Positions 9,773-30,822 of a stretch of 64,000 nt of DNA are shown in pieces (position 1 is the stretch's first letter; each line of letters opens with the position of its first letter). A program made the translations under genes and the position numbers. The stretch is taken from the NCBI GenBank assembly GCA_002787155.1, contig PCVY01000023.1, forward strand, positions 6,828 to 70,827, in the 5' to 3' direction. Under the pieces are notes generated by a model. It was not told the DNA's origin, ran no database searches, and was given only the letters and a program-made list of their open reading frames with translations. The stretch comes from Candidatus Abzuiibacterium crystallinum. Its GTDB lineage: Bacteria; Omnitrophota; Omnitrophia; Omnitrophales; Abzuiibacteriaceae.

Positions 9773-11449
9773 ATGAATCTCGGCAGCATACTCAAAGAGC
9801 GCGGTCTTCTGAATGCGGATCAATTGATTAAGGCCGAATCTTACGCTCAATCGAAAAAAATACCGTTAGGTTCGGCGATTCAGCGCCTTAATCTTGCCGC
9901 CAAAGAGCAAATTTACATGACGGTAGCCGAATCCATCGGTGTTCCTTATGTGGATCTATCCAGCTATGAAATTTCTCCCGATTGCACAAAATTGATCGCG
10001 CAAGAAACCGCGCGGCGTTACCGGGCCATTCCGCTTTTCAAAATCCAACAAACACTCACAGTCGCCATGGAAGACCCCACCAAATTGGCGGCGATTGACC
10101 GGATCCGGCATGAATCCAAAATGGAAATCGAATTGTGTTTGGCCGCCCCTGAAGACGTGCAAGAAGCTTTAGACCGTTACTTTGGCGTTTCGGGGACCAT
10201 TTCGAAATTGCTGGCTTCTTTAGATGCCGAAGACAAAGTCCGCCGGCGCGGAAGTGCGCCGCCCAAAGCAAAGCCGCTTAGCTTTGAAGCAACGGGGGGT
10301 GAACAGCCGATTGTGCAATTGGTCAATTTGATAGTCGAAGAAGCCGTGGAGCGGGGCGCCAGTGACATTCATATTGAACCCGAAGCAAACGAACTGCGCG
10401 TTCGTTACCGCATTGATGGTGTTTTGCAGGAAGCTCCTTCGCCGCCCAAACACTATGAAAGCGCGATCGTGTCGCGCTTAAAAGTGTTGGCCAATTTAGA
10501 TATTGCCGAAACCCGCATGCCCCAGGACGGTCAAATGAAAATCCAAGTCAAGAGCCGGGCCATTGATATTCGTGTCTCGGTCGTCCCGACCATTTATGGG
10601 GAAAACGCGGTCTTACGTATTCTAGATACCAACCGCGCTTTGCTCGACTTAAAACAATTGGGTTTTGCCGATGCCATGCTCCATCAGTTTGAAGAACTCA
10701 TCCGAAAATCCTACGGCATGATTTTAGTCACAGGCCCTACGGGCAGCGGCAAAACCACTTCACTTTATGCAGCTTTAACAGCCATTAATTCGGTTGAGCG
10801 CAGCATTGTCACCATTGAAGACCCGGTGGAATTCAAATTATCCCTCATTCGCCAAATCCAAGTGAACCCCAAAGCACAGCTGACGTTTGCCAACGGGCTT
10901 CGTTCCATTGTGCGGCAAGATCCGGATGTCATTATGGTCGGTGAAATCCGTGACTCCGAAACGGCCCACATTGCTACGCAAGCGGCGCTCACGGGCCATT
11001 TGGTTTTTAGTACGCTGCATACGCAAAATGCGGCGGGAGCCATTACGCGATTAGATGACATGGGGGTTGAGCCGTTTTACATTTCCTCATCGCTTCTATG
11101 CGTGGTTGCGCAGCGGCTGGTGCGTACCATTTGCGGGCAATGTAAAAAAACATATGATCCGCCTTCGGATATTCTAAACGCGATTCCGGCCAAGCACCGT
11201 TCAGAGATGAAGTTCTATAAAGGAAAAGGCTGTCAAAAATGCCAGCAAACGGGTTATCGAGGCCGTATTGGTATTTTTGAATTGCTTCGCATGACCGATG
11301 CGATCCGCCGGATGATTGCCAAAAAAGCAGTCAGTGCCGACATCCAACAACAAGCCGAAGCTGATGGCATGCAAACTTTATTTCTTGATGGTTTGGAAAA
11401 AGTGAAAGCGGGTATTACCACCATTGATGAAATTTTGAAAGTGATGTAG
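9773..11449 (+). CDS. GspE/PilB-family secretion or pilus-assembly ATPase
   Basis: 558 aa. It has an N-terminal T2SE_N/MshEN-like domain, Walker A GPTGSGKTTSLYAAL, Asp/His boxes (IMVGEIRDSETA, GHLVFSTLHT) and a tetracysteine cluster CGQCKK...CQKCQQTGYRGRIGIFE. Confidence 0.92.
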   Translation: MNLGSILKERGLLNADQLIKAESYAQSKKIPLGSAIQRLNLAAKEQIYMTVAESIGVPYVDLSSYEISPDCTKLIAQETARRYRAIPLFKIQQTLTVAMEDPTKLAAIDRIRHESKMEIELCLAAPEDVQEALDRYFGVSGTISKLLASLDAEDKVRRRGSAPPKAKPLSFEATGGEQPIVQLVNLIVEEAVERGASDIHIEPEANELRVRYRIDGVLQEAPSPPKHYESAIVSRLKVLANLDIAETRMPQDGQMKIQVKSRAIDIRVSVVPTIYGENAVLRILDTNRALLDLKQLGFADAMLHQFEELIRKSYGMILVTGPTGSGKTTSLYAALTAINSVERSIVTIEDPVEFKLSLIRQIQVNPKAQLTFANGLRSIVRQDPDVIMVGEIRDSETAHIATQAALTGHLVFSTLHTQNAAGAITRLDDMGVEPFYISSSLLCVVAQRLVRTICGQCKKTYDPPSDILNAIPAKHRSEMKFYKGKGCQKCQQTGYRGRIGIFELLRMTDAIRRMIAKKAVSADIQQQAEADGMQTLFLDGLEKVKAGITTIDEILKVM

Positions 11450-11459
11450 TTTAGAGATA

Positions 11460-11626
11460 CCAGAAACCGGTTTCATAAGTCCTCGTAAACCTAATAAAGA
11501 CATGTCATTGCGAGCTGAAGGCGAAGCAATCTCAGGTTTTAAAGAGGGATTGCCGCGTCGCTCCTTCGGAGTTCCTCGCAATGACGTGAATAAGGTAACT
11601 TATGAAGCCGCTTCCAGAAACCGGTT
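11460..11626. mobile_element. MITE-like palindromic element between the ATPase and platform genes
   Basis: The core has nested inverted repeats: GTCATTGCGAG (11504-11514) / CTCGCAATGAC (11575-11585), and GAAGCAATC (11523-11531) / GATTGC (11548-11553). Outer inverted repeats are TTCATAAG (11472-11479) / CTTATGAA (11599-11606). A 13-nt direct repeat CCAGAAACCGGTT flanks it at 11460-11472 and 11614-11626. Confidence 0.6.
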
Positions 11627-11714
11627 GCCAGTCAGCAGGTTAGTGATTCAGAAAATTTCAGCGGCACCTGGATTCTGGTTGCTGTTTTCCGGTTACTTGC
11701 TAAAGGGAACACAC

Positions 11715-12956
11715 GTGCCCATTTATCGTTATAAAGTCAAAACCGCGCAAGGTGAAGTGGTCACCGGTGCGATTGATGTTGAGAACAAGGAGTCGCTTCA
11801 AAAACAGTTGCGCACGCAAGGCCTGAGGCTTTTAGCGGCACAATTGGTTTCCACCAAGCCTGTTCCGGATGAAGACCGGTCCCTTCTGGTCGAACAAAAA
11901 AGAATCCGCGTTTCAAAAGCCCGTGTCCGCGATGAAGATATTTTAATGTTTACCCGTGAATTGCACAGTCTGGTCCGCTCCGGCATTCCGATCTTAAGCG
12001 GACTGCATTCCATGGCAGCCTCCACGAGTCACCGGACGATTAAAAATGTTGTTCTGTCTTTAGCCAATGATGTGGAAGCGGGCGAGCGGCTCTCAGATGC
12101 CATGCGCCGTCATCCGAACGTTTTCGAAGAAGTCTATGTGAGCAGCGTGGTAGCCGGTGAAGCGGCAGGGCAATTGCCGGAAGTATTAAGTCATTTAATT
12201 TCACTGCTTGAGCACCGGATTGAAACGCGAGGCGATATTCAAACGGCGACCCGTTATCCGTTAATTGTTTTAATCACGCTCGGTATTGGGTTTGGGATTA
12301 TCATTAATTTTGTCATTCCAAAGTTTGCCGGTTTCTACGCCAAATTTAACGCCGAACTTCCGCTGCCGACAAGGTTTTTAATTGCCTTGGGTCATTTGAC
12401 TTCCCAGCACGGTCTCGCTATGTTGGTCGTGCTTACTATTTGTATTTTCGCGGTTCGTATTTTTCTGCGTACGCCGATCGGAAAAAGTAGGTGGGACCAG
12501 CTCACGCTTCAAGTGCCTGTTTTTGGTCCGCTGTATCATAAAATTGCGTTATCTACTTTTGCAGCAACACTTGAGATGCTATATCGAAGCGGTGTTCCTA
12601 TCACGGAAGCTTTGCGTGTTGCCGCGCATGTGACCGGTAATGATATCGTAAGGCGCGGTGTGATCGACGTGCGGGAAGGTGTTTTGGCAGGCGAACCGAT
12701 TGCGGCGGTCATGAAACGGCATGCGATTTTTCCTTCGCTCATGGTGCAAATGATGTCCACTGGGGAGCAGACGGGTAACTTGGATCAATTGTTGCGTGAT
12801 TTGGCCAATCATTACGACCGGCAAGTCAAATATGAAACCAAGAACCTGACCACTTTAATCGAGCCCATGCTGACCATTTTATTAGGAGGGATGGTGCTGG
12901 TATTTGCCCTGGGTATTTTCTTACCCATGTGGAACATGATTCATCTCTTCAGATAA
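11715..12956 (+). CDS. GspF/PilC-family inner-membrane platform protein
   Basis: The listed ORF is 11502..12956, but its first ~70 codons are the translated MITE (MSLRAEGEAIS...). A GTG at 11715 is preceded by AAGGGA 6 nt upstream and gives MPIYRYKVKTAQGEVVTG, a typical GspF N-terminus, for a product of ~413 aa. Two T2SSF repeats are evident. Confidence 0.85.
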   Translation: MPIYRYKVKTAQGEVVTGAIDVENKESLQKQLRTQGLRLLAAQLVSTKPVPDEDRSLLVEQKRIRVSKARVRDEDILMFTRELHSLVRSGIPILSGLHSMAASTSHRTIKNVVLSLANDVEAGERLSDAMRRHPNVFEEVYVSSVVAGEAAGQLPEVLSHLISLLEHRIETRGDIQTATRYPLIVLITLGIGFGIIINFVIPKFAGFYAKFNAELPLPTRFLIALGHLTSQHGLAMLVVLTICIFAVRIFLRTPIGKSRWDQLTLQVPVFGPLYHKIALSTFAATLEMLYRSGVPITEALRVAAHVTGNDIVRRGVIDVREGVLAGEPIAAVMKRHAIFPSLMVQMMSTGEQTGNLDQLLRDLANHYDRQVKYETKNLTTLIEPMLTILLGGMVLVFALGIFLPMWNMIHLFR

Positions 12957-12969
12957 TGCCTTGGGGTGT

Positions 12970-13095
12970 CTTGGGGTCAGCACCTGAAGTTCATTGACAT
13001 TATTTAATATTCTTAATGAAAGCTTCAGGTACAGTCCCAACCAACCCTTAATATATAAATTGGAAGGTTGGGACAGGTCGGGGTCTGACCCCAAG
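12970..13095 (+). repeat. 126-nt nested-palindrome element (predicted three-way junction) just after the platform gene
   Basis: Outer stem: CTTGGGGTCAG (12970-12980) / CTGACCCCAAG (13085-13095). Inner hairpin A: ACCTGAAGTTCATT (12982-12995) / AATGAA..CTTCAGGT (13015-13030). Inner hairpin B: GTCCCAACC (13034-13042) / GGTTGGGAC (13066-13074). Confidence 0.55.
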
Positions 13096-13099
13096 AGTA

Positions 13100-13127
13100 T
13101 TGAACTTAACGTATTCTGTGGTATGAT
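13100..13127 (+). promoter_or_regulatory. Sigma70-like promoter (extended -10) for the first pilin gene
   Basis: TTGAAC (13100-13105), a 16-nt spacer, then TGgTATGAT (13119-13127). It lies between the palindromic element and the SD/ATG of the first prepilin gene. Confidence 0.4.
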
Positions 13128-13211
13128 AATTAAAGTTCAGTAAGCAGTTTTAGTTTCTATGTTTTCATGACGTTATGTTATAAAGATATCACTGCAAACG
13201 GAGGTCGTGCA

Positions 13212-13727
13212 ATGAAAAGTCGTCGTTTATCCCGAAAAGGTTTTACCCCGTTAGAGAATGAATCAGTATTAATTGGAAGTCATGACAAAAAGCCTATTGA
13301 TTGTCAAAGTGGAAAAACCCGCTTGAGAAAGAAACGCTCTCTAACGGGGTTTACGTTAATTGAATTAGTGATGGTCATTGTTGTATTAGGTTTTCTAGCG
13401 GTTGCCGCATTGCCGTCCTACTTTGATATTTCAACCGCTGCCCAAACAGCCAATGAAGATGGTGTCGTTGGCGGTGTCCGAGCCGGCATTGCCACCCAAT
13501 TTGTATCAGTGTTTACCACCGGAATCGGAACGCCTACATTTCCGGCTTCATTGGATACAGTAGGTGTTGCAACTACCTGTGATTCGGCTAACCCATGTTT
13601 TTCAACAGTATTACCAGGCGGTGTAACAGACGGTAATTGGACAAAAACAACCGCCACGCAATACACGGGCCCAAACAGCGGAACGTATACTTACAATTCA
13701 TCAAACGGCACTTTTACATCACCCTAA
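13212..13727 (+). CDS. Prepilin-type N-terminal cleavage/methylation domain protein (candidate major pilin/pseudopilin) with an abnormally long, duplicated leader
   Basis: GGAGG (13200-13204) lies 7 nt before ATG 13212, inside listed ORF 13167..13727. The sequence has RSLTG|FTLIELVMVIVVLGFLAVAALP (class III signal plus hydrophobic helix). The C-terminus is Thr/Ser/Gly-rich. Confidence 0.8.
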   Translation: MKSRRLSRKGFTPLENESVLIGSHDKKPIDCQSGKTRLRKKRSLTGFTLIELVMVIVVLGFLAVAALPSYFDISTAAQTANEDGVVGGVRAGIATQFVSVFTTGIGTPTFPASLDTVGVATTCDSANPCFSTVLPGGVTDGNWTKTTATQYTGPNSGTYTYNSSNGTFTSP

Positions 13728-13918
13728 TTTATTTATTCTCTGTTTTTCCTGTTAAGTGCTGCTACTGATGGGAAACTATTATTTCCATGTGATAACATGT
13801 ATTTTCACACAAAAAGTATTACTCCGCCCACGGACGCTCAAACAGTTCTATCAATAATTAATAGAAAAACTTCCCTAACGCAATCCGTTAGCAACAGCAC
13901 TCTTCAGAACTTAACCTT

Positions 13919-14386
13919 ATGCTGAATTTTCGCGCTGAGCGATGCAACCGAGTTTCTCGCGGGGCGGGGTTTACGCTTATTGAGCTCACCATCATCATTG
14001 TGATTATCGGTGTTTTGGCTGCTGCTGCTATTCCGCGTTATCTTGATCTCACCAACGAAGCAAAATTAAATGCCACCAAAGGTATTTTAGGTAATATGCG
14101 TGCCGCCATTATGATGCAGCGTGTGGATAACATCATCAAAACAGGTCAAGACCGTTTTCCGTCGTTAGCAGATATTCAGGATAATCCTTTTCAAACGGGT
14201 TGTACCGTTTTAGAAACGGGGGATCTTCCCGACAATCCTTTTAGTACAGGCTCGGATCCGGACGGTGTGGTGAGTACCACAGGCCGCCCCGTACCGACCG
14301 GTACGGATGGGGCGTGGGCCTATGATCCGCGAACGGGCGGTTTTTACGCAAACACCAAGAGCGGGAATGGCGAGGAACTTTTCTAA
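13919..14386 (+). CDS. Prepilin-type pilin/pseudopilin (GspG/PilA-like)
   Basis: 155 aa. It has RGAG|FTLIELTIIIVIIGVLAAAAIPRYLDLTNEAK, with Glu at +5 and the typical alpha1 helix. Confidence 0.82.
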   Translation: MLNFRAERCNRVSRGAGFTLIELTIIIVIIGVLAAAAIPRYLDLTNEAKLNATKGILGNMRAAIMMQRVDNIIKTGQDRFPSLADIQDNPFQTGCTVLETGDLPDNPFSTGSDPDGVVSTTGRPVPTGTDGAWAYDPRTGGFYANTKSGNGEELF

Positions 14387-14399
14387 TTTAGTAACTTAT

Positions 14400-14969
14400 A
14401 TGGGGTCAGACCCTGACCTGACCCCAAGACTAAGGGTCAGGTCAGGGTCTGACCCCAGGAAGAAGCGTTCCCTGTCTCTAACGGGGTTTACCCTCATCGA
14501 AATCCTGGTTGTTTTCACCGTCATCGTTTTTCTTTCCGTTTTTGCACTGACTAATTTCATCGATTTCTCCGCAACCCGTATCGAGGGGGCTGCCAAACGC
14601 ATTCAAACCGACATTCGTTATATTCAGCAAATTGCGTTGGCGCAGCAAAGAAGAACGCGTATCACCTTTGATGCCGGCACGGATAGTTATGCGGCTGAAA
14701 TGGAAAACACGCCCAATGCGGAAGATTGGACGTCGATCAATGACCCGCTGACCCGCCAGACTTTTCAGGTTATTTTTAATACGGGCGACTATCAAGGGGT
14801 TGATATCACAGGGGTGACGCTTGGCAGCGGGGATGTTTTGATATTTGATGAGATGGGCGATCCTTATACGGATGGAAACGTCGCTTTGGTAGAACCCGCC
14901 AATATTGTTTTAAACGGGACGCGTCAGATCCAAATCACAAGGGAAACAGGCCGTGTTCAAATTGTTTAA
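14400..14969 (+). CDS. Minor pseudopilin, GspH/FimT-like
   Basis: In listed ORF 14307..14969, the ATG at 14400 follows the upstream stop (14386). It has SLSLTG|FTLIEILVV followed by AKRIQTDIRYIQQIALAQQRRTRITFD, a GspH/FimT-type domain pattern. Confidence 0.72.
   Translation: MGSDPDLTPRLRVRSGSDPRKKRSLSLTGFTLIEILVVFTVIVFLSVFALTNFIDFSATRIEGAAKRIQTDIRYIQQIALAQQRRTRITFDAGTDSYAAEMENTPNAEDWTSINDPLTRQTFQVIFNTGDYQGVDITGVTLGSGDVLIFDEMGDPYTDGNVALVEPANIVLNGTRQIQITRETGRVQIV
14401..14457. repeat. REP-like perfect palindrome (24-bp arms, 9-nt loop)
   Basis: TGGGGTCAGACCCTGACCTGACCC (14401-14424) and GGGTCAGGTCAGGGTCTGACCCCA (14434-14457) are exact reverse complements. Confidence 0.9.
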
Positions 14970-15013
14970 CCCGTTAGAGACGCACGGGGTCTGACCCCAG
15001 GAGTACTACTAAA

Positions 15014-15436
15014 ATGCTTATCCAATTTCAAGTTGGAAAGACGCAATTGCAAAAAAGACGCTCTCTAACGGGGTTTACCCTGATCGAAATCGTGATTGTC
15101 ATCGTGGTTCTTTCGCTGGTAGCAGCCACACTTCTGACGGTGATGGGTGCCATTAGTCAAAACGTGATCCTTCCTTTCATGACTCAAATTGCAACCGGGC
15201 TCGCTGAAGAGCAGTTTGAACGCGTGATCGGACTTCGGTTTTCACAAGTCACAGACGAAGGGCCGGCAGCATTTGCGTTTCCCTTTACGGATTATTCGTA
15301 TGAGATTACCGTGAGTCCCGTTCCGGCAAATCTTTTTAATGATCCTTCCATGACACGTTACAAACAAGTGGAAATTGAAGTGAGTCACGCCTTAGTTGGC
15401 CATGTGAATGTGTACACGGTGGTAACCAATCATTAA
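15014..15436 (+). CDS. Minor pseudopilin (GspI/PilV-like)
   Basis: 140 aa. It has KRRSLTG|FTLIEIVIVIVVLSLVAATLL, a prepilin signal. Confidence 0.72.
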   Translation: MLIQFQVGKTQLQKRRSLTGFTLIEIVIVIVVLSLVAATLLTVMGAISQNVILPFMTQIATGLAEEQFERVIGLRFSQVTDEGPAAFAFPFTDYSYEITVSPVPANLFNDPSMTRYKQVEIEVSHALVGHVNVYTVVTNH

Positions 15437-15453
15437 CGGAGGGCTCGGGGCGC

Positions 15454-15478
15454 GGGGTCAGGTCCCGGACCTGACCCC
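15454..15478. repeat. REP-like 25-nt perfect palindrome
   Basis: GGGGTCAGGTCC-C-GGACCTGACCCC. It lies 18 nt after the upstream stop (15436) and 4 nt before ATG 15483. Confidence 0.9.
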
Positions 15479-15482
15479 TGAA

Positions 15483-16043
15483 ATGGATGACATGTTAAGT
15501 CGAATGATGCAAAAAAGAAGAGGGTTTACCCTTGTCGAACTGGTGATGGTGATTGCCATCATCGGGATCATGGCAGGCCTCCTTGGCCCTTTTTTGATTG
15601 TCACCGCTGATGCGCTGGATTTAATGTCCGTACAGTCCAATCTACAGGAAAGCGCTCAGGCGGCACTGGAACGCATGAGCCGTGATATTCGGCGGCTTCG
15701 GGATGATGAAAGTGTGGTGAATGCATCTTCCAGCTTTTTTTGGTTTTATGATGTGGATGACCGTCAAATGATTTATATTTTGGTCGGCAATACTTTGGTC
15801 CGGGTGATTTTTCCCGTTACACTTCCGCTGACTGTTCTAGCCGATCACGTTCAAACACTTTTGTTTCGCTATTATGATGACGATGGAAACCTCATTCCTT
15901 CTCCTGTGGTCGGATTGGGAACCGCCACCAATATCCGCCGCGTTCAAGTCGATATTCTTTTTGCAGACGGCAGTAAAAATTTAGTCGTGGAAGATAACAT
16001 TAGACCGAGAAATTTAAGACATGAATCCGATCGATTCTTTTAA
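15483..16043 (+). CDS. Minor pseudopilin (GspJ/PilW-like)
   Basis: 186 aa. It has MQKRRG|FTLVELVMVIAIIGIMAGLL followed by LQESAQAALERMSRDIRRL, a GspJ/PulJ-type pattern. Confidence 0.72.
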   Translation: MDDMLSRMMQKRRGFTLVELVMVIAIIGIMAGLLGPFLIVTADALDLMSVQSNLQESAQAALERMSRDIRRLRDDESVVNASSSFFWFYDVDDRQMIYILVGNTLVRVIFPVTLPLTVLADHVQTLLFRYYDDDGNLIPSPVVGLGTATNIRRVQVDILFADGSKNLVVEDNIRPRNLRHESDRFF

Positions 16044-17517: not shown

Positions 17518-17906
17518 TGATGAGTGAAAAAAATCAACCCAAACGCCAAATTAATTCGCGTCAGGTACCGCGGGTGCCTGTCCAAGGCAAAATCCAACTT
17601 GTCATTTCACCCCGTATGCAAAGTGCGGTTGGCTTGGTCCAGAAACGCATTGAGGGCGAACTGACCGATATGAGTACGCTGGGTTTGGGGATGACCTCCG
17701 GCATTTTTTTACCCAAAGGGTCAAGAATTCAAGGCCAAGTCAGCTCAGCAAGGATTTTTAAATCCCGGCCGCTCCGCTTTGTCGGCACGGTGATGAACAT
17801 TGGCATGCAATCGGGTCATCGTTACCGGGTTGGGATTAAGTTTGAACGGATCAAGTCTCATGATCGCGGCCTCATCCAAAACTTCATTGACCGTGAGTCA
17901 ATTTAA
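17517..17906 (+). CDS. PilZ domain protein (c-di-GMP receptor)
   Basis: RxxxR (RQVPR) and DxSxxG (DMSTLG) motifs are present at the correct spacing. The start MMSEKN overlaps the upstream stop (TAATG). Confidence 0.75.
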   Translation: MMSEKNQPKRQINSRQVPRVPVQGKIQLVISPRMQSAVGLVQKRIEGELTDMSTLGLGMTSGIFLPKGSRIQGQVSSARIFKSRPLRFVGTVMNIGMQSGHRYRVGIKFERIKSHDRGLIQNFIDRESI

Positions 17907-17911
17907 TTATC

Positions 17912-19771: not shown

Positions 19772-19803
19772 TCATTAATAGGTTCTATTAACATTTCTAA
19801 CCG

Positions 19804-19960
19804 GTCATTCTGAGTCCCCTCTGCCGAAGGCAGTGGAGGACGAAGAATCCAGATAAAAAGAGATCCTTCACGGCGTTTACCCTGAGATGCTTCCCGCCAG
19901 AAGCGAGGCTCGCCAAAGGCGGGGCTTCGCTCAGCATGACATCGAAGGGCTCAGGGTGAC
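19804..19960. mobile_element. MITE-like palindromic element (GTCATTCTGAG ... CTCAGCATGAC type)
   Basis: Terminal inverted repeats: GTCATTCTGAG (19804-19814) versus CTCAGCATGAC (19930-19940), plus a second copy CTCAGGGTGAC (19950-19960). There is an inner GAAGAATCC / GATCCTTC pair. It is intergenic, and the antisense ORF 19797..20006 is its translation artefact. Confidence 0.6.
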
Positions 19961-20114
19961 GCTTTGCCATGGCAAACGTCAACAGAACCCAGTCTTTTCC
20001 CAACAAATTTTTCTCTTTTCGTTAAAGATTTCCGTCTCCTGTCGATATTTATGATAGTACAGGTAAGAGTACTTCCTTGTTCCTGGTTCCTGGTTTTAAA
20101 GAGAGCGACTCTGA

Positions 20115-20366
20115 ATGACATTGATCCGAAAAGGGCAGCTGGCAAAAGAGCTTAACATTCCTTGGCCGACCGTGAAGTATTACACGGCAGTGGGGCTTTT
20201 CCCCGTGGCGGGCAGAACGCCCAATGGTCAGCACTTGTACCACTTACCGCTCATTCGAGAAAAATACGAACGCATCAAAACGCTGAAACGTCAGCGTTTG
20301 ACGATCGGTGAAATTATCGATCGTCTCAAAATGGAGAGTATTGTCCAAGAAACAAGCGCGGTTTAA
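20115..20366 (+). CDS. MerR-family HTH DNA-binding protein
   Basis: 83 aa. [45 protein letters not shown]...[10 protein letters not shown] fits the MerR winged-HTH pattern. Confidence 0.7.
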
Positions 20367-20389
20367 GCGCGCGCGAGAGGAGAACGGCG

Positions 20390-21445: not shown

Positions 21446-21454
21446 ATTATTCAC

Positions 21455-23320
21455 ATGGCTAAGAAACCGACAGGGCTCAACAAGAAAGTCTCATCCATTT
21501 TTTCGGGCATTCCTTCATTCGGTGAAGAGAAGGAATCATCGTCACCTGAAGTCAAGCCGGAGGCGCAGGCAGCTGCTTCACTGAGCGGCGCCAAACCTGC
21601 TCAATTGCCACGGCCCATGGAACCAGGCCATCCCATACCAAAGTCAGAATTAAAATTTAATCTTGGCTCTCTTTTTCAAGTGCAGCCTCGTCCCCGGTTA
21701 ATTTTTGATATCGGGTCCAGCAACGTCAAGGCTGTCTTAATGAAACCGGGCTTGCGGTCATGGACCATACAAGATGCGCGTGACAGTGAGTTTACCGTTG
21801 ATCATCAAGGTGTTCGGCGGGCAGCGGGGGATGACATGGTGCTGGCATTAAAAGAAATTGCGGCGGCGCTTGATCCCAAACATGAAGCGTCGGTAGGGAT
21901 GGTGATTGGCAGCGCGAACTCATTTTTCAAAGTGATCCCGGCACCCGAGGGGCCAGAGAACACGTGGCGCGAAGAAATCGTTTGGCAGTTAGCGGAAACA
22001 GCTCCCTTTTCTTTGGAAGAAGCCGAGGTGGAATGGGTGAAAGTGCCTCGGTTGAACTTGCCTCATATCAAAGGTGTGCCGCTGCTCGCTGCTGCGGTTG
22101 AACGTTTTGAATTAGACCGATGGATGACTATTTTTCGGAAAGCCGGTTTGCATCTGGAGCTGATTATCCCTGCACCGCTTGCGGTTGAATCAATGCTCAC
22201 CCGTTATCGCCAGCCGGCAGCCGAATCAATGTTGATTGCAGATTTTGGCGCCGAACACACGCAGTTTTACGTTTTTGTGAAGGGGCAGTTTGTACTCATG
22301 AGAGATATTTCGTTCGGAACAGAACTCGTGATTCGCTCTTTAATCGGACCAATTCAAATTGATAATGAACGAGTTGAAATCGGGTTTCAGGAAGCCAGCA
22401 CCTTGGTTCGGGAATATCAATTATTTGCCGGAATCGGGCAGTATGATTCTGCGCAGCCCAAGCGTTCCCAGTTGGCGGCCCGTGTTCGCCCGCACATGGA
22501 AAAATTGGTCAACGAAATCAAGCGGTCTATCACATATTACCAGACAGAATTTCATGGCCCCGAAGTTTCTAATGTTTTCATTATTGGCGGCGGCGCCGGT
22601 TTAGAGGGGATCGATCAATTTTTATCGCATGAACTCAATGCGTCGGTTTCACGCGTTGACTTGGTCAAAGATTTTACTTGGCACTTGGATCCGCATCTAT
22701 TGAAACACACCCCGTCACTTCGCAGGACTTTCGGGGTGGTGCTGGGCGGCGCATATGTTAAATCACCTCGTATTAATTTTGCTGATTGGCAGGACCGATG
22801 GGCCTCCGTTGCCGCCCAAATCAAACAATGGTCGAAAGTAGCCATGCTGGGTGTCATGGTTGTCGCCGGCATAGGCTGGTCGTCTTTGACTGTGCAGCAG
22901 ACATTGCTTGATCGTGAATTGAAGGCTGTGCAGCAGAAAATTGATCAAGCGGGTCCCGTGACGGCTAAATTAACCGAATTAGAAACGTTAGGGCAGCAAA
23001 TCGAATTACGCCAGTCGCTTCTTGCGCAGGCTTTTGGTTATGAGCCTTATTGGGGAGGTATATTGAGGGAATTGAGTCATTTGATTCCCCGGGAACTGGT
23101 TTTAGATACCTTCAGTGCGGCAGAGAACAAGGGAGTGCCCGAAATCATTTTAACCGGGCATGTTCAAGTTTCGTCCAGACCCAGTGACATGGTGGTATCG
23201 GAATTGCTGCATGTTCTAAACGAATCACCCTTTTTTTCTTCGGCCCAGTTGATTAAGCGAACTCAGCAGGAAGAAGAAACAACCAAAACGACTTTTAGTG
23301 TCAAAGCAGATTTAGCCTAA
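21455..23320 (+). CDS. PilM-PilN fusion (actin-like pilus assembly ATPase fused to a TM/coiled-coil PilN-like module; GspL-like topology)
   Basis: 621 aa. It has a low-complexity N-terminus, then a PilM-like region (LIFDIGSSNVKAVLM ... IADFGAEHTQFYVF ... IIGGGAGLEGI), then a TM helix (VAMLGVMVVAGIGWSSL) and a coiled coil. Confidence 0.7.
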   Translation: MAKKPTGLNKKVSSIFSGIPSFGEEKESSSPEVKPEAQAAASLSGAKPAQLPRPMEPGHPIPKSELKFNLGSLFQVQPRPRLIFDIGSSNVKAVLMKPGLRSWTIQDARDSEFTVDHQGVRRAAGDDMVLALKEIAAALDPKHEASVGMVIGSANSFFKVIPAPEGPENTWREEIVWQLAETAPFSLEEAEVEWVKVPRLNLPHIKGVPLLAAAVERFELDRWMTIFRKAGLHLELIIPAPLAVESMLTRYRQPAAESMLIADFGAEHTQFYVFVKGQFVLMRDISFGTELVIRSLIGPIQIDNERVEIGFQEASTLVREYQLFAGIGQYDSAQPKRSQLAARVRPHMEKLVNEIKRSITYYQTEFHGPEVSNVFIIGGGAGLEGIDQFLSHELNASVSRVDLVKDFTWHLDPHLLKHTPSLRRTFGVVLGGAYVKSPRINFADWQDRWASVAAQIKQWSKVAMLGVMVVAGIGWSSLTVQQTLLDRELKAVQQKIDQAGPVTAKLTELETLGQQIELRQSLLAQAFGYEPYWGGILRELSHLIPRELVLDTFSAAENKGVPEIILTGHVQVSSRPSDMVVSELLHVLNESPFFSSAQLIKRTQQEEETTKTTFSVKADLA

Positions 23321-23334
23321 ACACAGGACAACAG

Positions 23335-23946
23335 ATGGCGGTCAGACCCGAATCGCAAAAAATCGTTTTACAATGGGCTGTCAAAGAGAAAGTGGTATTG
23401 CACTTGTCTGTTTTGGCAGGGTTAATTGTTTTTGCAGCTTTCGCCGTGATAGGTCCGCGGATAGCTGATTTAAACAAACAAAAAGCAAAGTTAAAGGAGT
23501 TTAATTCTTTTTTACTGGGTACACAAGAAGCCGCGAAACGGCTGAGAAATCTAGAACAATTGCTCGCAGATCAGAGGCAGGCATTAAAAGAGCTCAACGC
23601 ACAAACGCTGAAACGAACTTCCATTGCTGCTATGCTGCAGAATTTTACGGCCGCTTCCGAATCACTGCCAATGACCATTTTGGACATCAGACCGGATGAG
23701 GCACCCGCGGTCAATGATCCAAAGGCCGTCGTGCCGGCCTGGAAAGAAAACGGCTTTGATCAAAAGTTATTGAATATTCATTTTCAATGCCGGTACCAAA
23801 CGCTGGGTCGTTTACTGGAACGCTTAGAAGAAACACCTTTAATTTATCATGTCACTAAACTTGAAATGGGGACCAAGGATTTAATCGCACCTAATTTGGA
23901 CATTTCATTAACGTTAGCTTCTTATGTGGAAAATTCACCTCACTAA
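23335..23946 (+). CDS. PilO-like pilus assembly protein
   Basis: 203 aa. It has one N-terminal TM helix, a coiled coil (KQKAKLKEFN...LEQLLADQRQALKELN) and a C-terminal ferredoxin-like region. The position after pilMN supports the call. Confidence 0.55.
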   Translation: MAVRPESQKIVLQWAVKEKVVLHLSVLAGLIVFAAFAVIGPRIADLNKQKAKLKEFNSFLLGTQEAAKRLRNLEQLLADQRQALKELNAQTLKRTSIAAMLQNFTAASESLPMTILDIRPDEAPAVNDPKAVVPAWKENGFDQKLLNIHFQCRYQTLGRLLERLEETPLIYHVTKLEMGTKDLIAPNLDISLTLASYVENSPH

Positions 23947-23955
23947 GCAGATACC

Positions 23956-24489
23956 ATGGCACTCAGCAAAAAAGATAAAATTCAATTAGGCATCATCGTG
24001 ATGATGGTCGGACTGATTATTTTTAAATTGCCGGACTTCGTGCGGTTCGTGAGCGGTACCACACAAAAAGCCTCCTCAGGCGTTCCAAATGCCTTACCGG
24101 CACTGCCCGAGAATGCGCCCGATTTTTTGAAGGCCATGGTCATGCAAGTACGCAGCGGCACCGCTCATCCTCATTTCAATTTAACGCAAGAGCGGGCTCT
24201 TAGAGAACAGCAAGCGCTTCTCAAAGAACAATCCTGGGGAAGAGATCCGTTTTTTTCGATCCCCATTGATGAATCGCGGTCCAAAAAAATCGAAGTCACC
24301 GACAGCTCCGAATTGGTTCTCAAAGCGATCTCATTAAAAGGCACAACCGCCATGGCCATTATTAACCAAACGGTCATTCATGTCGGTGATGAAATTTTGG
24401 GAATGACTGTCAAATCCATTGAGCGCGGTCGTGTGATTTTAGCGAACAGCGAACGCGAACGTGTTTTACGTTTTGGAGGCATGACATGA
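23956..24489 (+). CDS. PilP/GspC-like small periplasmic protein
   Basis: 177 aa. It has an N-terminal TM helix and a C-terminal beta-rich segment (LKAISLKGTTAMAIINQTVIHVGDEILGMTVKSIERGRVIL), as in PilP / GspC HR domains. It overlaps the secretin gene by 4 nt. Confidence 0.45.
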   Translation: MALSKKDKIQLGIIVMMVGLIIFKLPDFVRFVSGTTQKASSGVPNALPALPENAPDFLKAMVMQVRSGTAHPHFNLTQERALREQQALLKEQSWGRDPFFSIPIDESRSKKIEVTDSSELVLKAISLKGTTAMAIINQTVIHVGDEILGMTVKSIERGRVILANSERERVLRFGGMT

Positions 24490-26147
24490 CAAAACCAATC
24501 CAGTTTGGTTTTGTTTTTCTTATGGTGTTGGCATTAACCGTCTCGCAGGCACAGGCAGACTACTCGCCGTCAACCGTTCAAAGCGATGATTCATTGGTGA
24601 CGCTGGATGTTCAGCAAACTGATATCAGAAGCGTGCTTAATCTGCTTGCCGAGCAGTACGACTTGAATATGGTGATTGATGATGACGTGACCGGCCTGAT
24701 CACCATTCGTTTGCAGGATGTCTCACTGCACGGAGCGTTACAGGCCATTTTATTATCGCACGGGTACGATTATGAAACCGTGGATAACATTGTCCGGATC
24801 GCTCCGACCGAAGTCCTGGCAGGCGAAAGAGTCATTCGGCAGGAACGGCAGGGGATTGAACCGCTTGTTTCTGAGGTGATTACGCTGCAATATTTAGACG
24901 CCAGCGACATACGCCCAGCCATTGAGGCGCTTCTCTCAGAGCGCGGTTCCATCAGCGTGGTTGAACGCAAGAACTTTACCGGGTTTCAGTTTGGTGCGCA
25001 GGCTGTTCAAACCGGATCAAGCACTTCCGGCGCAGCTGGTGAAGGATTAATTCGTGATAGACGCAAAGGAGATTCTACTGCACGGTCACGATTTTTATTG
25101 GTGACCGATACGCGCAGCCATGTGGAACGCATCAAGAGCGTGATCCGCAATGTTGATGTCAGGCCGCCGCAAATCCTGATTGATGCCAAAATCTTAGAGG
25201 TAGAAACAGACACCTTAGAGGATTTGGGTATTGAGTTTGATTCGCAAGTGACGCCGCCGACAGAAAATGATCATAACAGCGTGTTAAATTTTGATTTTAA
25301 TCAGGGCGTGAGCGGCAAAACTTTTCCCACGTCAAGTGATCAAGGGCTGAATGTTCAGTTTCAAAAAATCATCGGTGAGAATTTTCAAGCGGTTTTACAT
25401 GCGCTGCTGCAGGATGAGCGAACACGAACGCTTTCCAGCCCGCGTATTTTGGTTTTAGACGGACAAGAAGCTGCCATTTTGGTAGGGGAACAGTTCCCGA
25501 TTTTCGAAAGCACCGTTTCCGATCAAGGAACGGCCACCGAATCACTTTCTTTTTTCCAACCGATCGGTATTAGTTTGCAAGTGATTCCGCAAATTACCGC
25601 TGACAATAATATCCAGATGATCATTCACCCGACCGTCAGCTCAGTCGGTAATTTTGTGACGGGCAGCACCGGGCTCACTCAGCCCCGTATTAACATTCGC
25701 GAAGCTGACACTCAAGTGCTCGTGAAGAACAGCGAAACGCTTGTGATCGGCGGGCTGCTCGAAGACATTACAGTCGAATCTGAATTTAAGGTGCCAATTT
25801 TAGGGTATATTCCTTATCTGGGAAAACTATTTACACGTACCCGGACCGATGTGGATCAAAGAAATCTCATTGTTTTTATTACGCCTCAAATCATCAGCCC
25901 GGATGTTGGGTTGAGTGACAAACGGGCCAAGGAGGCATTCCTGGGCATTGTGGATTCGGATCGTTACGGTTTCTTGCATGAAAGGCGTGAGAATGTTAAA
26001 ACACATATCCAAGAAGGTGTGCGTGCTTTTCATTTAGGTGATTACGAAGTGGCCCGGCAGGCATTTGAACGCGTTCTGCGCTTGGATGATCAAAATCAAA
26101 CCGCCCGTGAGTACCTCAATAAGATCTACAACGCCCTCAGAAATTGA
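24486..26147 (+). CDS. Secretin (PilQ/GspD family) with a C-terminal TPR-like extension
   Basis: 553 aa. It has a signal peptide (FVFLMVLALTVSQAQA), N-domains, and a secretin core: TRTLSSPRILVLDGQEAAILVG...LVIGGLLED...KVPILGYIPYLGKLFTRTRTDVDQRNLIVFITPQII. Confidence 0.9.
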   Translation: MTKPIQFGFVFLMVLALTVSQAQADYSPSTVQSDDSLVTLDVQQTDIRSVLNLLAEQYDLNMVIDDDVTGLITIRLQDVSLHGALQAILLSHGYDYETVDNIVRIAPTEVLAGERVIRQERQGIEPLVSEVITLQYLDASDIRPAIEALLSERGSISVVERKNFTGFQFGAQAVQTGSSTSGAAGEGLIRDRRKGDSTARSRFLLVTDTRSHVERIKSVIRNVDVRPPQILIDAKILEVETDTLEDLGIEFDSQVTPPTENDHNSVLNFDFNQGVSGKTFPTSSDQGLNVQFQKIIGENFQAVLHALLQDERTRTLSSPRILVLDGQEAAILVGEQFPIFESTVSDQGTATESLSFFQPIGISLQVIPQITADNNIQMIIHPTVSSVGNFVTGSTGLTQPRINIREADTQVLVKNSETLVIGGLLEDITVESEFKVPILGYIPYLGKLFTRTRTDVDQRNLIVFITPQIISPDVGLSDKRAKEAFLGIVDSDRYGFLHERRENVKTHIQEGVRAFHLGDYEVARQAFERVLRLDDQNQTAREYLNKIYNALRN

Positions 26148-26264: not shown

Positions 26265-27749
26265 ATGATCTTATTACGAAAGATTATTTTTTACCTTTTT
26301 GTCGTCATTTACATTGTCGTTTGCCCCATGGTCATCATGTACGCGATTGGCTACATCTATCGCCCGGGCGCTCGGCAGGAACTTGTTCAGACCGGATTGA
26401 TTTACCTTTCTACGGTACCGCCGGGTGCTGCGGTGTATTTAGAGGGAAAACGTTTTGCTCAGAAAACACCCGCCATGATTCGTGATTTGTTCCCGGGGCA
26501 ATACCAAGTCACGATGTCATTGAAAGGGTATGAAGACTGGTCACAGTCCGTTCCGATTACGGCAGAGCAAGCTTCTGTGTTGGATCACGTGCTTTTCCAT
26601 CCTAAAAGATGGCCGATTCAAACATTATCAAGCGGCTCTTTTCACAATTTTCAAGTGATCCAAAATTTCCATGTGATTCCCAAATCAGACCTCTTTGTGC
26701 TTGAAACGGCTGATCGTCAGGTGGGCGGCCTTTACCTTTATGACACACAATCAAAGGAATTGAAACCGCTGATCGGAAGTGATTCGCCTTGGCGTTCTCA
26801 AAGTATTGAACATCTTTACGCCGTGAAAGAAAGCTCGCAATTAATTTTGTCTGCCAAAGATAAGGGAGATCTAATTTTTTTGTCTGTCAATTTAGATGAC
26901 AAACCGCCGGCCATTCGTGAAATAACGTCTTTGTTCCAAGAGGAGAAACCCAAATACTTATGGTGGAGTGCTGATAACAAGGAGAATCTATTTGTTTACC
27001 GGAATCGGCAGTTACATCGTTTGAACTTAAGGCGTTATGAAGTCAATCCTGAATTTGCCGAAGGCACACGCGGATTTGGCGTGATGAAAGACAGCGCTTA
27101 CATTTTGCGTTCAGACGGCATTTTTATGAAGCGTTCCATTAACGGGCAAGACGAAAAAATTCTCTTAAAAGATCAAGACCTCATGCATTCACTATTCGGA
27201 GACGAAGGATTTTTCAAGATTTATGCCTATCCGTCGGATTTGTTTCTTTTTTGGGGAGACAAAGGACAATTATTGACCAACAAATTACCTTATCAATTGG
27301 TCAGGCAAGGTGTGAAGGGTTTCGCTTATGACGTCAAGAAAGAACTGCTGCTGATTTGGCGGCGCCAAGACTTAGGCATCGTTGATTTTGCCACGCGGCC
27401 TTTTGAGCGTGATGATGTTTTTGAACCCGCTCCGCGGCTCAAGTGGGTCTATCATGGCGGTGATCAGATTAATCAAGCTTTCCTGGTCTATGAGGGATCC
27501 GCGGTGATATTTCGTGACGGCAATCAGGTGCTTTTGCTTGATTTAGAAACGTTTGAAGAACCTCATTTGAGCCCGGTGGTTGAAGTGTTCCCAAGGTCCG
27601 ATATCTATTATTCAGATGATTCCGGATTTTTGTACTATTTAGATCAGGCCAAGGGTCACTTCATGTCGCTTCAAGTGGTTCCCAAGGAGTCAGTGATCCA
27701 GTTTCCGGAATGGAAAGAAACTTTTAAAAGAAGAAAGAAGCTATCATGA
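26265..27749 (+). CDS. Membrane-anchored PEGA-domain protein with a large C-terminal beta-rich domain
   Basis: 494 aa. It has an N-terminal TM helix, a PEGA-like segment (YLSTVPPGAAVYLEGKRFAQKTPAMIRDLFPGQYQVTMSLKGYEDW), and a repetitive beta-strand-like remainder. Confidence 0.55.
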   Translation: MILLRKIIFYLFVVIYIVVCPMVIMYAIGYIYRPGARQELVQTGLIYLSTVPPGAAVYLEGKRFAQKTPAMIRDLFPGQYQVTMSLKGYEDWSQSVPITAEQASVLDHVLFHPKRWPIQTLSSGSFHNFQVIQNFHVIPKSDLFVLETADRQVGGLYLYDTQSKELKPLIGSDSPWRSQSIEHLYAVKESSQLILSAKDKGDLIFLSVNLDDKPPAIREITSLFQEEKPKYLWWSADNKENLFVYRNRQLHRLNLRRYEVNPEFAEGTRGFGVMKDSAYILRSDGIFMKRSINGQDEKILLKDQDLMHSLFGDEGFFKIYAYPSDLFLFWGDKGQLLTNKLPYQLVRQGVKGFAYDVKKELLLIWRRQDLGIVDFATRPFERDDVFEPAPRLKWVYHGGDQINQAFLVYEGSAVIFRDGNQVLLLDLETFEEPHLSPVVEVFPRSDIYYSDDSGFLYYLDQAKGHFMSLQVVPKESVIQFPEWKETFKRRKKLS

Positions 27750-29380
27750 AGTTTAATTATACCGCTCAAAACTTGAGTGTTGAGGAGTATAAGTGGCAGC
27801 GTTTTTTTGAGATTTTACCGGGGCTTACCAGCTGGCTGATCATCGTTGGCCTGGTTGTGTTGACAATTTTTCAGCCCATTTTGGGCGCTTGCGGTGTTAT
27901 TGCGCTCATGTTGTATTGGATCTTAAGACTTTCTTACCTGACCATTTTTCTGCTTATTTCTTTTTTCAGGTTTTCAATGGAAAAAGAAATTGATTGGTTG
28001 GCACTCGCACACCTCGCGAGCGGAACCGGTGATATGTCCCGGTCGAATCGGACGCGCAAGGGATTGCGTGCTTTTAAATATCGCTTAGCCTATTTGCTTC
28101 ACAAAAAAGAGATTGAGCAATTAAGAAAAAATACTCAACCAGTCCCGTCGATGGATAAACTGATTCATTTGGTCATGATACCCATTGTCAATGAGCCTAG
28201 TCAAATTTTGGAGCAAAGCATCCAAAGTCTTGCGGGAGGGTCATTTTCAGCCAAGCAATTACTCGTTGTTCTCGCTGTGGAGGAAAGATCATCTCAGACG
28301 ATACAAGAGAATGCCATTCGGCTGCAGAAAAGATTTCAAAAATATTTTTATGATTTTAAAATCATTGTCCATCCCGATGGCATACCCGGGGAAGCCAAGG
28401 TCAAGGGGGCAAATGTGACTTTTGCAGCCAAGAAAATGGCTGCTTACTTTAACGAAAAAGGTATTCAGTATGAAAATGTTATTTTGTCTTGCTTTGATGC
28501 CGACACGGTCGTGGATCCCCAGTACTTTGCCTGCCTGACTTATCAATTTTTAGTTTGTCCCGATCGATTGCAGTCTAGTTTTCAGCCGGTTCCGGTTTAT
28601 ACCAATAATATATGGCAAGCGCACGGGTTTACGCGCGTACTTGAAATGGGCGCCTCATTTTTCCAGCTCATTGAAGCCACCAATCCGGAAAAATTGGTCA
28701 CCTTTTCAAGTCACAGCATGAGTTTTAAGGTTCTCGCGGATATCAATTATTGGCCCGTTGATATGATTTCAGACGATTCCTCTATTTTTTGGAAAGCATT
28801 CATTTATTATGATGGTCATTACCAAGCTGTCCCGCTTTATGTGACGGTTTCAATGGATGTGGTCGATGCCGGTAGTTGGTGGAGAACAGCCGTGAATGTT
28901 TATAAACAAAAAAGAAGGTGGGCTTGGGGAATCGAAAATTTTCCTATTATCCTGCGGGCCTTTATGAAGGCTGAACAAATTTCATTTTATGATAAATTTC
29001 GCTATGCCTTTAAAATGTTCGAAAGTCATGTCTCATGGGCGACGTGGGCTTTCATTCTGTCGTTTGTCGGATGGGTTCCGGCGTTACTGGCCAGCCGCAC
29101 TTTCTCGGAAACCGTGCTTTATTACACAGCACCTCGGATTACACATTTAATTCTCAATCTTTCATTGGGCGCTTTGATCGTTAGTATTATCTTAAGTTTA
29201 TTGATGCTGCCCAAACGTAAAGTCAAACACTCTTTCCTTAAAAAAACGGGTTTTACTTTGCAATGGTTTTTGCTGCCATGGACTTTTATTTTCTTGGGAG
29301 CACTTCCGGCTTTGGATGCCCAAACGCGCTTAATGTTTGGAAAATACATGACCTTTTGGGTCACAGAAAAGAAAAGGTGA
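27746..29380 (+). CDS. Integral-membrane family 2 glycosyltransferase (processive synthase-like)
   Basis: 544 aa. TM helices flank a GT-A core: VMIPIVNEPSQILEQSI, CFDADTVVDPQYF (the D,D motifs) and QKRRWAWG (the Q-x-x-RW motif of processive beta-glycan synthases). Confidence 0.75.
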   Translation: MKFNYTAQNLSVEEYKWQRFFEILPGLTSWLIIVGLVVLTIFQPILGACGVIALMLYWILRLSYLTIFLLISFFRFSMEKEIDWLALAHLASGTGDMSRSNRTRKGLRAFKYRLAYLLHKKEIEQLRKNTQPVPSMDKLIHLVMIPIVNEPSQILEQSIQSLAGGSFSAKQLLVVLAVEERSSQTIQENAIRLQKRFQKYFYDFKIIVHPDGIPGEAKVKGANVTFAAKKMAAYFNEKGIQYENVILSCFDADTVVDPQYFACLTYQFLVCPDRLQSSFQPVPVYTNNIWQAHGFTRVLEMGASFFQLIEATNPEKLVTFSSHSMSFKVLADINYWPVDMISDDSSIFWKAFIYYDGHYQAVPLYVTVSMDVVDAGSWWRTAVNVYKQKRRWAWGIENFPIILRAFMKAEQISFYDKFRYAFKMFESHVSWATWAFILSFVGWVPALLASRTFSETVLYYTAPRITHLILNLSLGALIVSIILSLLMLPKRKVKHSFLKKTGFTLQWFLLPWTFIFLGALPALDAQTRLMFGKYMTFWVTEKKR

Positions 29381-30812: not shown

Positions 30813-30822
30813 AGCAGATTTC

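Follow-up and report, generated by a model that had tools for sequence, protein, structure and literature searches.

A type IVa-pilus-like filament locus upstream of a giant open reading frame in an Omnitrophota genome

The stretch of DNA analysed here, referred to as the window, consists of 64,000 nucleotides from Candidatus Abzuiibacterium crystallinum, a member of the Omnitrophota, which are placed in the PVC group (NCBI taxonomy); a literature search found no mention of 'Abzuiibacterium'. Ten of the encoded proteins are identical to entries in the NCBI series PIQ86944-PIQ86969 (locus tags COV74_027xx), deposited for this organism under its former name 'Candidatus Omnitrophica bacterium CG11_big_fil_rev_8_21_14_0_20'. 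From position 1666 to the end of the window, every gene lies on the + strand. Judged by its predicted gene content, the region 9773-26147 is a type IV filament locus built like that of a type IVa pilus (T4aP), and some way beyond its last gene begins a giant open reading frame (ORF). It appears fairly probable that the locus encodes a self-contained, vertically inherited Omnitrophota machine of the T4aP class, that the genes downstream of it are separate and that the proximity of the giant gene is lineage-specific and not obligate. A preliminary description of the same stretch had proposed a hybrid of a type IV pilus and a type II secretion system (T2SS), extended by two further genes and functionally linked to the giant protein. 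The proteins of the window were scanned with Pfam and NCBIfam profiles. An Rfam scan of the window gave no match at the gathering threshold, and consensus scans for promoters and terminators between 9 and 33 kb, which gave counts no higher than those for shuffled sequence, were not used as evidence.

Gene content of the locus

The genes listed in the preliminary description were all recovered by ORF, Pfam and NCBIfam scans where it had placed them, on the + strand, although its account of the block had missed three conserved genes, those for a membrane protein with tetratricopeptide repeats (TPR), a MerR-type protein and a ParA-type ATPase. The features of the locus are as follows.

9773-11449, +, assembly ATPase of the PilB type, with an MshEN N-domain and a T2SSE domain (Pfam T2SSE E=1.9e-141, MshEN E=8e-21)
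11502-12956, +, inner-membrane platform protein (PilC/GspF; two Pfam T2SSF domains)
12969-16074, no strand, GC-rich palindromes of the GGGGTCAG..CTGACCCC type (repeat families D3/D12; inverted repeats I1-I3, I13, I17)
13167-13727, +, prepilin 1, G-like, mature length about 125 aa (N_methyl; G↓FTLIE at residue 61)
13919-14386, +, prepilin 2, G-like, mature length about 138 aa (N_methyl; best NCBIfam match GspG, E=2.9e-10; G↓FTLIE)
14307-14969, +, minor prepilin, GspH/FimU-like (Pfam GspH E=1e-4; NCBIfam ComGD and GspH; G↓FTLIE)
15014-15436, +, minor prepilin in the GspI/PilV position (N_methyl; weak GspI and GspH matches; G↓FTLIE)
15483-16043, +, minor prepilin in the GspJ/PilW position (N_methyl E=6.8e-8; G↓FTLVE)
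16021-17517, +, PilX/GspK-like protein of 498 aa (UniRef name PilX N-terminal-domain protein)
17502-17906, +, PilZ-domain protein (Pfam PilZ E=1.5e-7)
17912-19771, +, multi-pass membrane protein of 619 aa with C-terminal TPR (TM+TPR protein; TPR families)
20115-20366, +, MerR-type helix-turn-helix protein of 83 aa (Pfam MerR, MerR_1)
20390-21445, +, ParA/MinD-class ATPase, BcsQ-like (AAA_31 E=2e-61)
21455-23320, +, PilM-PilN fusion of 621 aa in a GspL-like arrangement (Pfam PilM_2 and PilN)
23335-23946, +, PilO/GspM-like bitopic protein (weak matches: GspM full-length, E=0.012; PDB M. xanthus PilO, 3jc8, E=0.094)
23956-24489, +, PilP/GspC-HR-like protein (weak match: GspC HR region, E=8e-4, residues 109-172)
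24486-26147, +, outer-membrane secretin with a C-terminal TPR-like tail (Pfam Secretin E=4e-46, 157 bits; Secretin_N, STN, N0, TPR_2)

The ATPase matches the NCBIfam PilB model (TIGR02538) over its full length with 624 bits (cutoff 675.65), against 606 bits for GspE (cutoff 630). Intact MshEN motifs follow the consensus RLGxx(L/V/I)(L/V/I)xxG(L/V/I)(L/V/I)xxxxLxxxLxxQ; in this ATPase motif 1 begins with N and motif 2 with P where the consensus has Arg, the match to the c-di-GMP motif model reaches 17.7 bits (cutoff 38), and a role as an MshE-type c-di-GMP receptor was rejected on account of this degeneracy. The platform protein scores almost equally with GspF (310 bits, cutoff 424) and PilC (306 bits), both below their cutoffs. 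Since its ORF of 484 aa exceeds the orthologues (411-437 aa) and no family model aligns before residue 71-75, the called start, which is also that annotated by NCBI, probably lies about 50-70 codons too far upstream (region 11502-11720).

All five prepilin genes carry the class III signal motif G↓FTL[IV]E. A promoter-like site with an extended -10 precedes prepilin 1 at 13100-13127, in a consensus scan with counts at the level of shuffled sequence. The palindromes, for which a pattern search gave four matches against 0.22 expected, are perfect or near-perfect and GC-rich (for example GGGGTCAGGTCCCGGACCTGACCCC), and occupy the spacers before pilin genes and the start of the PilX-like gene; when ORFs are called mechanically, reading through them gives the pilins spurious long 'leaders'. 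Intercistronic RNA hairpins and REP-like elements are two candidate explanations for them. The PilX/GspK-like protein, which had neither a Pfam nor an NCBIfam match, has a pilin-like hydrophobic N-terminus lacking the motif Glu and a body that is possibly a beta-helix; a PDB profile search gave a weak match to the HMW1 adhesin (E=0.034).

In the fusion protein, PilM_2 covers residues 85-409 (E=6e-17, 62 bits, cutoff 27) and PilN residues 536-619 (E=3e-5, 24.4 bits, cutoff 22.8), and the NCBIfam matches are an Amuc_1101-family PilM-like model and pilM. For the PilP-like protein, a PDB profile search gave no match and a single-sequence AF2 model was unusable (pLDDT 53). The secretin scores 267.5 bits with PilQ (TIGR02515, cutoff 284.35) and 238 bits with GspD (cutoff 351).

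Among the accessory proteins, that with the PilZ domain retains both c-di-GMP-binding motifs, RxxxR at residues 20-24 and DxSxxG at residues 56-61. The TM+TPR protein has weak PilW/Tgl-like TPR profile matches, and a PDB profile search returned only generic TPR structures. The ParA-class ATPase ends in an acidic, P/E/T-rich tail and matches ParA and RepA models, all below cutoff. The preliminary description had reported that an A24 prepilin peptidase and a PilT-like retraction ATPase are missing from the window, and indeed neither was found in the 30 scanned ORFs or in the giant ORF.

Conservation among related loci

Secretin orthologues come almost exclusively from Omnitrophota and share 47-68% identity in the loci that were inspected. 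Eight related pilus loci (L083/L086, L084/L087, L085, L123, L124, L125, L126 and L127) were examined, each in a view of 10 kb on either side. Where visible, the gene order is the same: ATPase, platform, pilins, a PilX-like protein of about 500 aa, MerR, ParA, PilM-N, PilO-like, PilP-like and secretin. The counterpart of the PilM-PilN fusion is a single ORF of 567-623 aa in all eight, the PilO-like gene keeps its position and size throughout the orthologous loci, and the PilP-like gene keeps its position and an invariant WGRDPF motif; by position, size and conservation, both genes would suit the roles of PilO and PilP. The PilX/GspK-like protein is 39-63% identical across these loci. Neither an A24 peptidase nor a second T2SSE-family ATPase was found in any of the eight within the 10-kb flanks.

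The genes inserted before pilM are also conserved. Six related loci show the position just before the ParA gene, and in all of them it is taken by MerR (49-73% identity); ParA itself is 63-79% identical. The pair stands directly before pilM in the window, L083-L085, L123, L125 and L127, while L124 shows ParA at its edge. The pair is absent from more distant secretin loci (about 36% identity). PilZ is present in L083, L084 and L123, whereas in L085, L125 and L127 no PilZ gene separates the PilX-like gene from MerR. Only the window and L123 have the TM+TPR gene between PilZ and MerR; it follows the secretin in L083, L084 and L124; in L125 the secretin is followed by an unannotated ORF of 615 aa that is 18% identical to the TM+TPR protein in an alignment. 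Judged by this gene order, the pilus locus is an autonomous conserved module with lineage-specific extras, namely the PilM-N fusion, the MerR and ParA pair and the TM+TPR protein.

Genes between the secretin and the giant ORF

The interval between the secretin gene and the giant ORF holds five genes and a spacer.

26265-27749, +, PEGA-domain protein (Pfam PEGA)
27746-29380, +, membrane glycosyltransferase of family GT2, PgaC-like (Glyco_trans_2_3 at only E=0.0012; PF13632 precomputed in homologues)
29417-31425, +, Psd (phosphatidylserine decarboxylase), a CDP-alcohol phosphatidyltransferase (PssA-like) and a LysE-type exporter (Pfam)
31426-31701, +, AT-rich structured spacer of 276 nt before the giant ORF (folding energy -81.9 kcal/mol, z=-6.4 against shuffled sequence)

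The PEGA and GT2 genes had been counted with the pilus machine, an assignment that did not survive comparison across the phylum. More than 3,000 homologues share 52-59% identity with the GT2 protein, which occurs in at least 577 GTDB genomes, essentially all of them Omnitrophota and including V. archaeovorus LiM; the best match among GTDB representatives is 59% identical. In 80 GTDB Omnitrophota loci that were fetched for comparison, 49 of which show at least 5 kb upstream of PEGA, a PEGA gene precedes GT2 without exception (80/80), and a type IV pilus-type gene lies nearby in two, one being a secretin on the opposite strand and the other PilB-like. In the assemblies JAUYMS01 (L085 versus L003) and JACQQS01 (L124 versus L071), moreover, the pilus locus and PEGA-GT2 are found on different contigs. 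On this synteny, PEGA-GT2 was rejected as a pilus-linked exopolysaccharide module; the two genes form an independent pair kept throughout the phylum, and look like a core envelope-polysaccharide module of the Omnitrophota.

None of the genes for Psd, the CDP-alcohol phosphatidyltransferase or the LysE-type exporter was found beside PEGA-GT2 in the 80 other loci, and the three would be membrane housekeeping genes belonging to a separate module. Within the spacer, a TATATATA inverted repeat encloses two GC-rich hairpins, and an Rfam search with the spacer matched no family. Because the spacer is structured and AT-rich and contains promoter-like hexamers at 31531-31571, albeit from a consensus scan whose counts are at shuffle level, it suggests that the giant gene is a separate transcription unit.

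The giant ORF and its neighbourhood

31702-63999, +, giant ORF of at least 10,766 aa, open to the end of the window and running off it

The preliminary description had placed the giant ORF 2.3 kb after the block and on the same strand. The distance is correct when counted from 29380; the gap, however, holds the Psd, CDP-alcohol phosphatidyltransferase and LysE genes, and with PEGA and GT2 set apart from the machine, the giant ORF starts 5.5 kb past the secretin with five unrelated genes and a structured spacer between them. Its signal-peptide-like N-terminus, noted earlier, was confirmed (K5, R9 and hydrophobic residues 11-29). A Kyte-Doolittle scan of its first 10.7 k aa shows hardly any strongly hydrophobic segment apart from G/A-rich stretches around aa 1800 and 9939. 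The chain has six intact Walker-A loops (aa 4384, 4918, 5276, 5722, 6052 and 6586), all within AAA_5 domains; along the window (44851-51470) they alternate between FGxTxGGKS and LLVGQSGGGKTE, giving three A-B pairs. The array looks like a single-chain pseudo-hexameric AAA+ ring of the dynein/midasin type.

The first approximately 530 aa of the giant (window 31702-33381, aa 1-560) form a head with the signal-like N-terminus and no Pfam match. Homologues of this head number 6,774 cluster representatives at E<=1e-3 and 3,983 at E<=1e-10; the head is always N-terminal, and the best-scoring 150 of the 6,774 are mostly proteins of 1.5-7.9 k aa.

The preliminary description had mentioned reports that giant genes of lineages such as Omnitrophota lie near T2SS/T4P-type loci, and such reports do exist. 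T2SS/T4P-like loci, with gspD/E/F, rcpC and a Rotamase_2 peptidyl-prolyl isomerase, have been described upstream of Omnitrophota giants (West-Roberts et al. 2023, bioRxiv 10.1101/2023.11.21.568195), and in a 2026 preprint 13 of 14 giants have secretion or pilus genes among the ±20 ORFs around them. T4aP loci are very common among Omnitrophota, and so are ORFs above 20 kb (Seymour et al. 2023, PMC10066038).

In seven of the eight related pilus loci, the 10 kb after the secretin contain ordinary genes, such as those for thioredoxin, DeoC and two-component systems or, on the opposite strand, for a response-regulator GGDEF/EAL protein. Viewed from the giant, three head-bearing ORFs, in L005, L025 and L057, start 200-300 nt after GT2 and extend over more than 3,233, 2,280 and 3,278 aa, respectively, before running off the locus. 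These loci share the upstream order OEP, MarR, HI0933-like, DUF5666, pirin, PEGA and GT2, and therefore represent one lineage; no pilus or secretion gene was found in the 7.6-8.5 kb visible upstream of PEGA. The head-bearing proteins P0001, P0003 and P0004 (1.7-1.9 k aa) also sit in non-pilus contexts. Homologues of the giant thus occur without pilus genes in the 10-kb view, one of the two observations that together, according to the preliminary description, would refute its functional link. As for the functional link that had been proposed from co-localization, the related locus L123, with a large ORF after its secretin, speaks for it, whereas the seven loci that lack one and the head homologues without pilus genes nearby speak against it. 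With one positive among eight independent loci, these data alone cannot show enrichment over chance.

As read from the compared neighbourhoods, the nearness of giant and pilus locus is real, is not conserved among orthologues and is of a kind already described. It is plausible that the two share a cell-contact biology; direct export or deployment of the giant by the machine, another proposal of the preliminary description, is not supported. The six-domain AAA_5 array makes passage of the whole protein through the secretin implausible, and this route was rejected: because ATPase domains need cytoplasmic ATP, the intact giant would not be a secretin substrate folded in the periplasm. More generally, giant-gene neighbourhoods should not be read as secretion operons without permutation-controlled synteny statistics.

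Pilus or secretion system

The assignment of the locus to the T4aP class is supported by its content and gene order, which match the T4aP layout, with PilM, N, O, P and Q in sequence and an ATPase that aligns end-to-end with the PilB model, and from the secretin, on which the PilQ model scores higher than GspD. No Pfam match in the locus was found for the diagnostic parts of a T2SS, namely the GspC PDZ domain, T2SSL and T2SSK, and the T2SS core models all remain under their curated cutoffs, GspE, GspF and GspD with the scores given above and GspG with at most 40 bits (cutoff 89). T4aP occur in nearly all Omnitrophota and are expressed in V. archaeovorus, and loci of this kind have been classed as T4aP using TXSScan (Seymour et al. 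2023, PMC10066038). The hybrid label used in the preliminary description fits the sequence signal, but the diagnostic T2SS parts are absent. T4aP and T2SS are in any case homologous machines.

Several observations weigh against the view of a self-contained T4aP-class machine whose giant neighbour is not obligate. Every core protein scores below its curated NCBIfam cutoff, with T2SS models nearly equal to those for T4aP, and the sole family models with a match, a weak one, to the PilO-like and PilP-like proteins are GspM and GspC of the T2SS. PilT was seen neither in the window nor in the eight related loci, so that the filament may be a non-retractile pseudopilus of the T2SS type; the related loci are visible for only 10 kb on either side. 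With regard to the giant, two papers report a statistical association of giants with secretion or pilus genes, which keeps a looser functional link plausible, and in the closest relative of the locus, L123, whose secretin is 68% identical, the secretin is immediately followed by a large ORF that carries the motif described below. This ORF (9620-12769 of L123), which has a signal-like anchor and a length of at least 1,040 aa, opens 400 nt past the secretin and runs off the contig; BLAST found no similarity between it and the giant of the window.

The explanation that survives best beside a self-contained machine, although we regard it as unlikely, is that the machine is functionally coupled to the giant, exporting, displaying or deploying it or, more realistically, handling periplasmic fragments released by its processing. 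The association has been published, and giant and locus lie on the same strand 5.5 kb apart. The large anchored ORF close behind the L123 secretin, the Sec-type N-terminus of the giant and a retraction ATPase that is not encoded locally, which is the T2SS pattern, point in the same direction, as does a recurrent R-[SA]-E-x-R motif in the giant, whose domain-sized spacing could mark processing sites. These points are opposed by the seven of eight orthologous loci without a large ORF within 10 kb downstream, by the giant-head homologues without upstream pilus genes, by the five unrelated genes and structured spacer that intervene, by the six intact AAA_5 P-loops with their need for cytoplasmic ATP, and by the absence here of rcpC and the Rotamase_2 peptidyl-prolyl isomerase that characterize the locus of West-Roberts et al.

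Still more doubtful is a true T2SS, in which a short pseudopilus piston would expel folded periplasmic enzymes unrelated to the giant. The closeness of the GspE, GspF and GspD scores to those of the pilus models would be expected of such a system, as would pilins that best match GspG and GspH and are arranged as G, G, H, I, J, K-like, a PilM-PilN fusion that mimics GspL, PilO-like and PilP-like proteins that match GspM and GspC, and the lack of PilT in the window and the eight related loci. On the other hand, the alignment of the ATPase with PilB extends over the full length and includes the N-terminal MshEN domain, PilQ ranks above GspD, the Pfam matches are to PilM_2 and PilN and not to T2SSL, with neither T2SSK nor a GspC PDZ domain, the M-N-O-P-Q order is that of T4aP genes, and Seymour et al. 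assign such loci to T4aP with TXSScan.

For a T4aP-class machine, the gene set would translate into the following mechanism. The PilB-type ATPase and the PilC platform would polymerize the pilins, two of them G-like and primed by the H-I-J-K-like set of minor pilins, into a filament that passes an alignment complex made of the PilM-PilN fusion and the PilO-like and PilP-like proteins and leaves the cell through the PilQ-type secretin. The PilZ protein, which appears competent to bind c-di-GMP, probably gates assembly; the MerR-type and ParA/MinD-type proteins probably position or regulate the machine; and the TM+TPR protein is probably an accessory of the secretin or the pilins. As five prepilins require an A24 peptidase, one would be encoded elsewhere in the genome, and the same would apply to any retraction ATPase, should there be one. 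The product would most likely be a surface pilus with which the cell attaches to partners or prey or moves on them, a role already proposed for the T4aP of Omnitrophota. Since the near-universal occurrence of T4aP in Omnitrophota has been published, as has the proximity of these loci to giants, the finding in itself changes little; what it adds is that the pilus locus is autonomous, that PEGA-GT2 lies outside it and that the adjacency of the giant is an exception among orthologues.

Comparison with known systems

The T4aP of Myxococcus xanthus, Thermus thermophilus and Pseudomonas aeruginosa share with the present locus a PilB-type ATPase, PilC, PilM, PilN, PilO-like and PilP-like proteins and a PilQ-type secretin, together with major-type pilins and a four-member set of minor pilins, a PilZ protein, a TPR accessory and the M-N-O-P-Q order. 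Differences are the fusion of PilM and PilN, the MerR-type and ParA/MinD-type genes inserted before pilM, the TPR protein, which is a 619-aa polytopic protein here and a small lipoprotein there, the lack of PilD and PilT in the locus, and curated scores that are all below cutoff. The T2SS (GspC-O) resembles it in the homologous ATPase, platform and secretin, the G-H-I-J-K-like order of pseudopilins, the GspL-like PilM-N fusion, the weak GspM and GspC-HR matches and the lack of a retraction ATPase in the locus; it differs in the GspC PDZ domain, T2SSL and T2SSK, which have no match here, in the PilB-type N-terminus of the ATPase and in the higher score of PilQ relative to GspD.

The giant-linked T2SS-like locus of Omnitrophota (West-Roberts et al. 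2023) belongs to the same phylum, comprises more than ten subunits including gspD/E/F homologues and small genes with class III signals, and likewise lies upstream of a giant gene on the same strand. It carries rcpC and a Rotamase_2 peptidyl-prolyl isomerase, for which the ORFs of the window gave no Pfam match, whereas the present locus has a PilMNOPQ-type architecture, is separated from the giant by five unrelated genes and has orthologues that usually lack a neighbouring giant gene. In the Akkermansia/PVC type IV pilus-like cluster (Amuc_1098-1102), also from the PVC group, the Amuc_1101 family is the best NCBIfam match of the PilM-N fusion and the Amuc_1098 family a weak match of the secretin; the scores lie far under the equivalog cutoffs (71 versus 650 and 86 versus 750 bits) and the present locus is much richer. 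Finally, a ParA/MinD-class ATPase within a type IV filament locus, seen in every related locus that shows the position, recalls TadZ/CpaE of Tad pili. The locus lacks TadA/CpaF, TadB/C, RcpC and a Flp pilin, however, its match to an NCBIfam CpaE homologue is marginal (E=5e-4), and a positioning role for the ATPase is inferred.

A recurrent motif in the giant-protein family

Where about 0.9 would be expected, the giant has 14 [SA]ELR motifs, nine of them in the strict form R-[SA]-E-x-R, often in the context '..SQDT..LW..G(G/A-rich)..[KR]SELR.KDY..DELL'; the motif is absent from the remaining 9.7 k aa of window proteins. In an unbiased count over 130 family members, variants of R-[SA]-E-[LVMAIT]-R are the top pentamers outside the head, RSELR being enriched 154-fold and RSEVR 196-fold over expectation. 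A set of 147 proteins (P0258-P0404; 459 k aa) holds 650 motifs, compared with six after shuffling and one in 133 k aa of control proteins; 94 of the 147 have at least two, at a median spacing of 324 aa. The large ORF of L123 also carries the motif, five times in 1,050 aa, and the motif was also noted in the giants of L005, L025 and L057 and in L001.

The motif could be a processing site, a sorting signal, a linker or a module boundary. No mention of it was found in the two giant-gene papers or in the other Omnitrophota literature searched, and the cleavage points of the giants are unknown (West-Roberts et al. 2023, bioRxiv 10.1101/2023.11.21.568195). A bolder scenario, which we consider highly improbable, is that the giant family with its 6,774 representatives consists of polyproteins in which the motif marks sites of processing or sorting, and that a PilT-less T2SS-like machine handles the periplasmic modules released. 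If true, it would give the Omnitrophota giants a defined maturation and export pathway. The motif is a concrete and testable candidate for cleavage or boundary points, and may prove more useful than the locus finding.

Other genes in the window

Upstream of the pilus locus lies a trehalose cluster (3453-7662) with OtsA (GT20), OtsB, DUF5752 and a TreT-type trehalose synthase. Amt and P-II genes (1666-3300) stand before the cluster, and after it comes a ClC channel that has CBS and TrkA_C domains (7689-9716).

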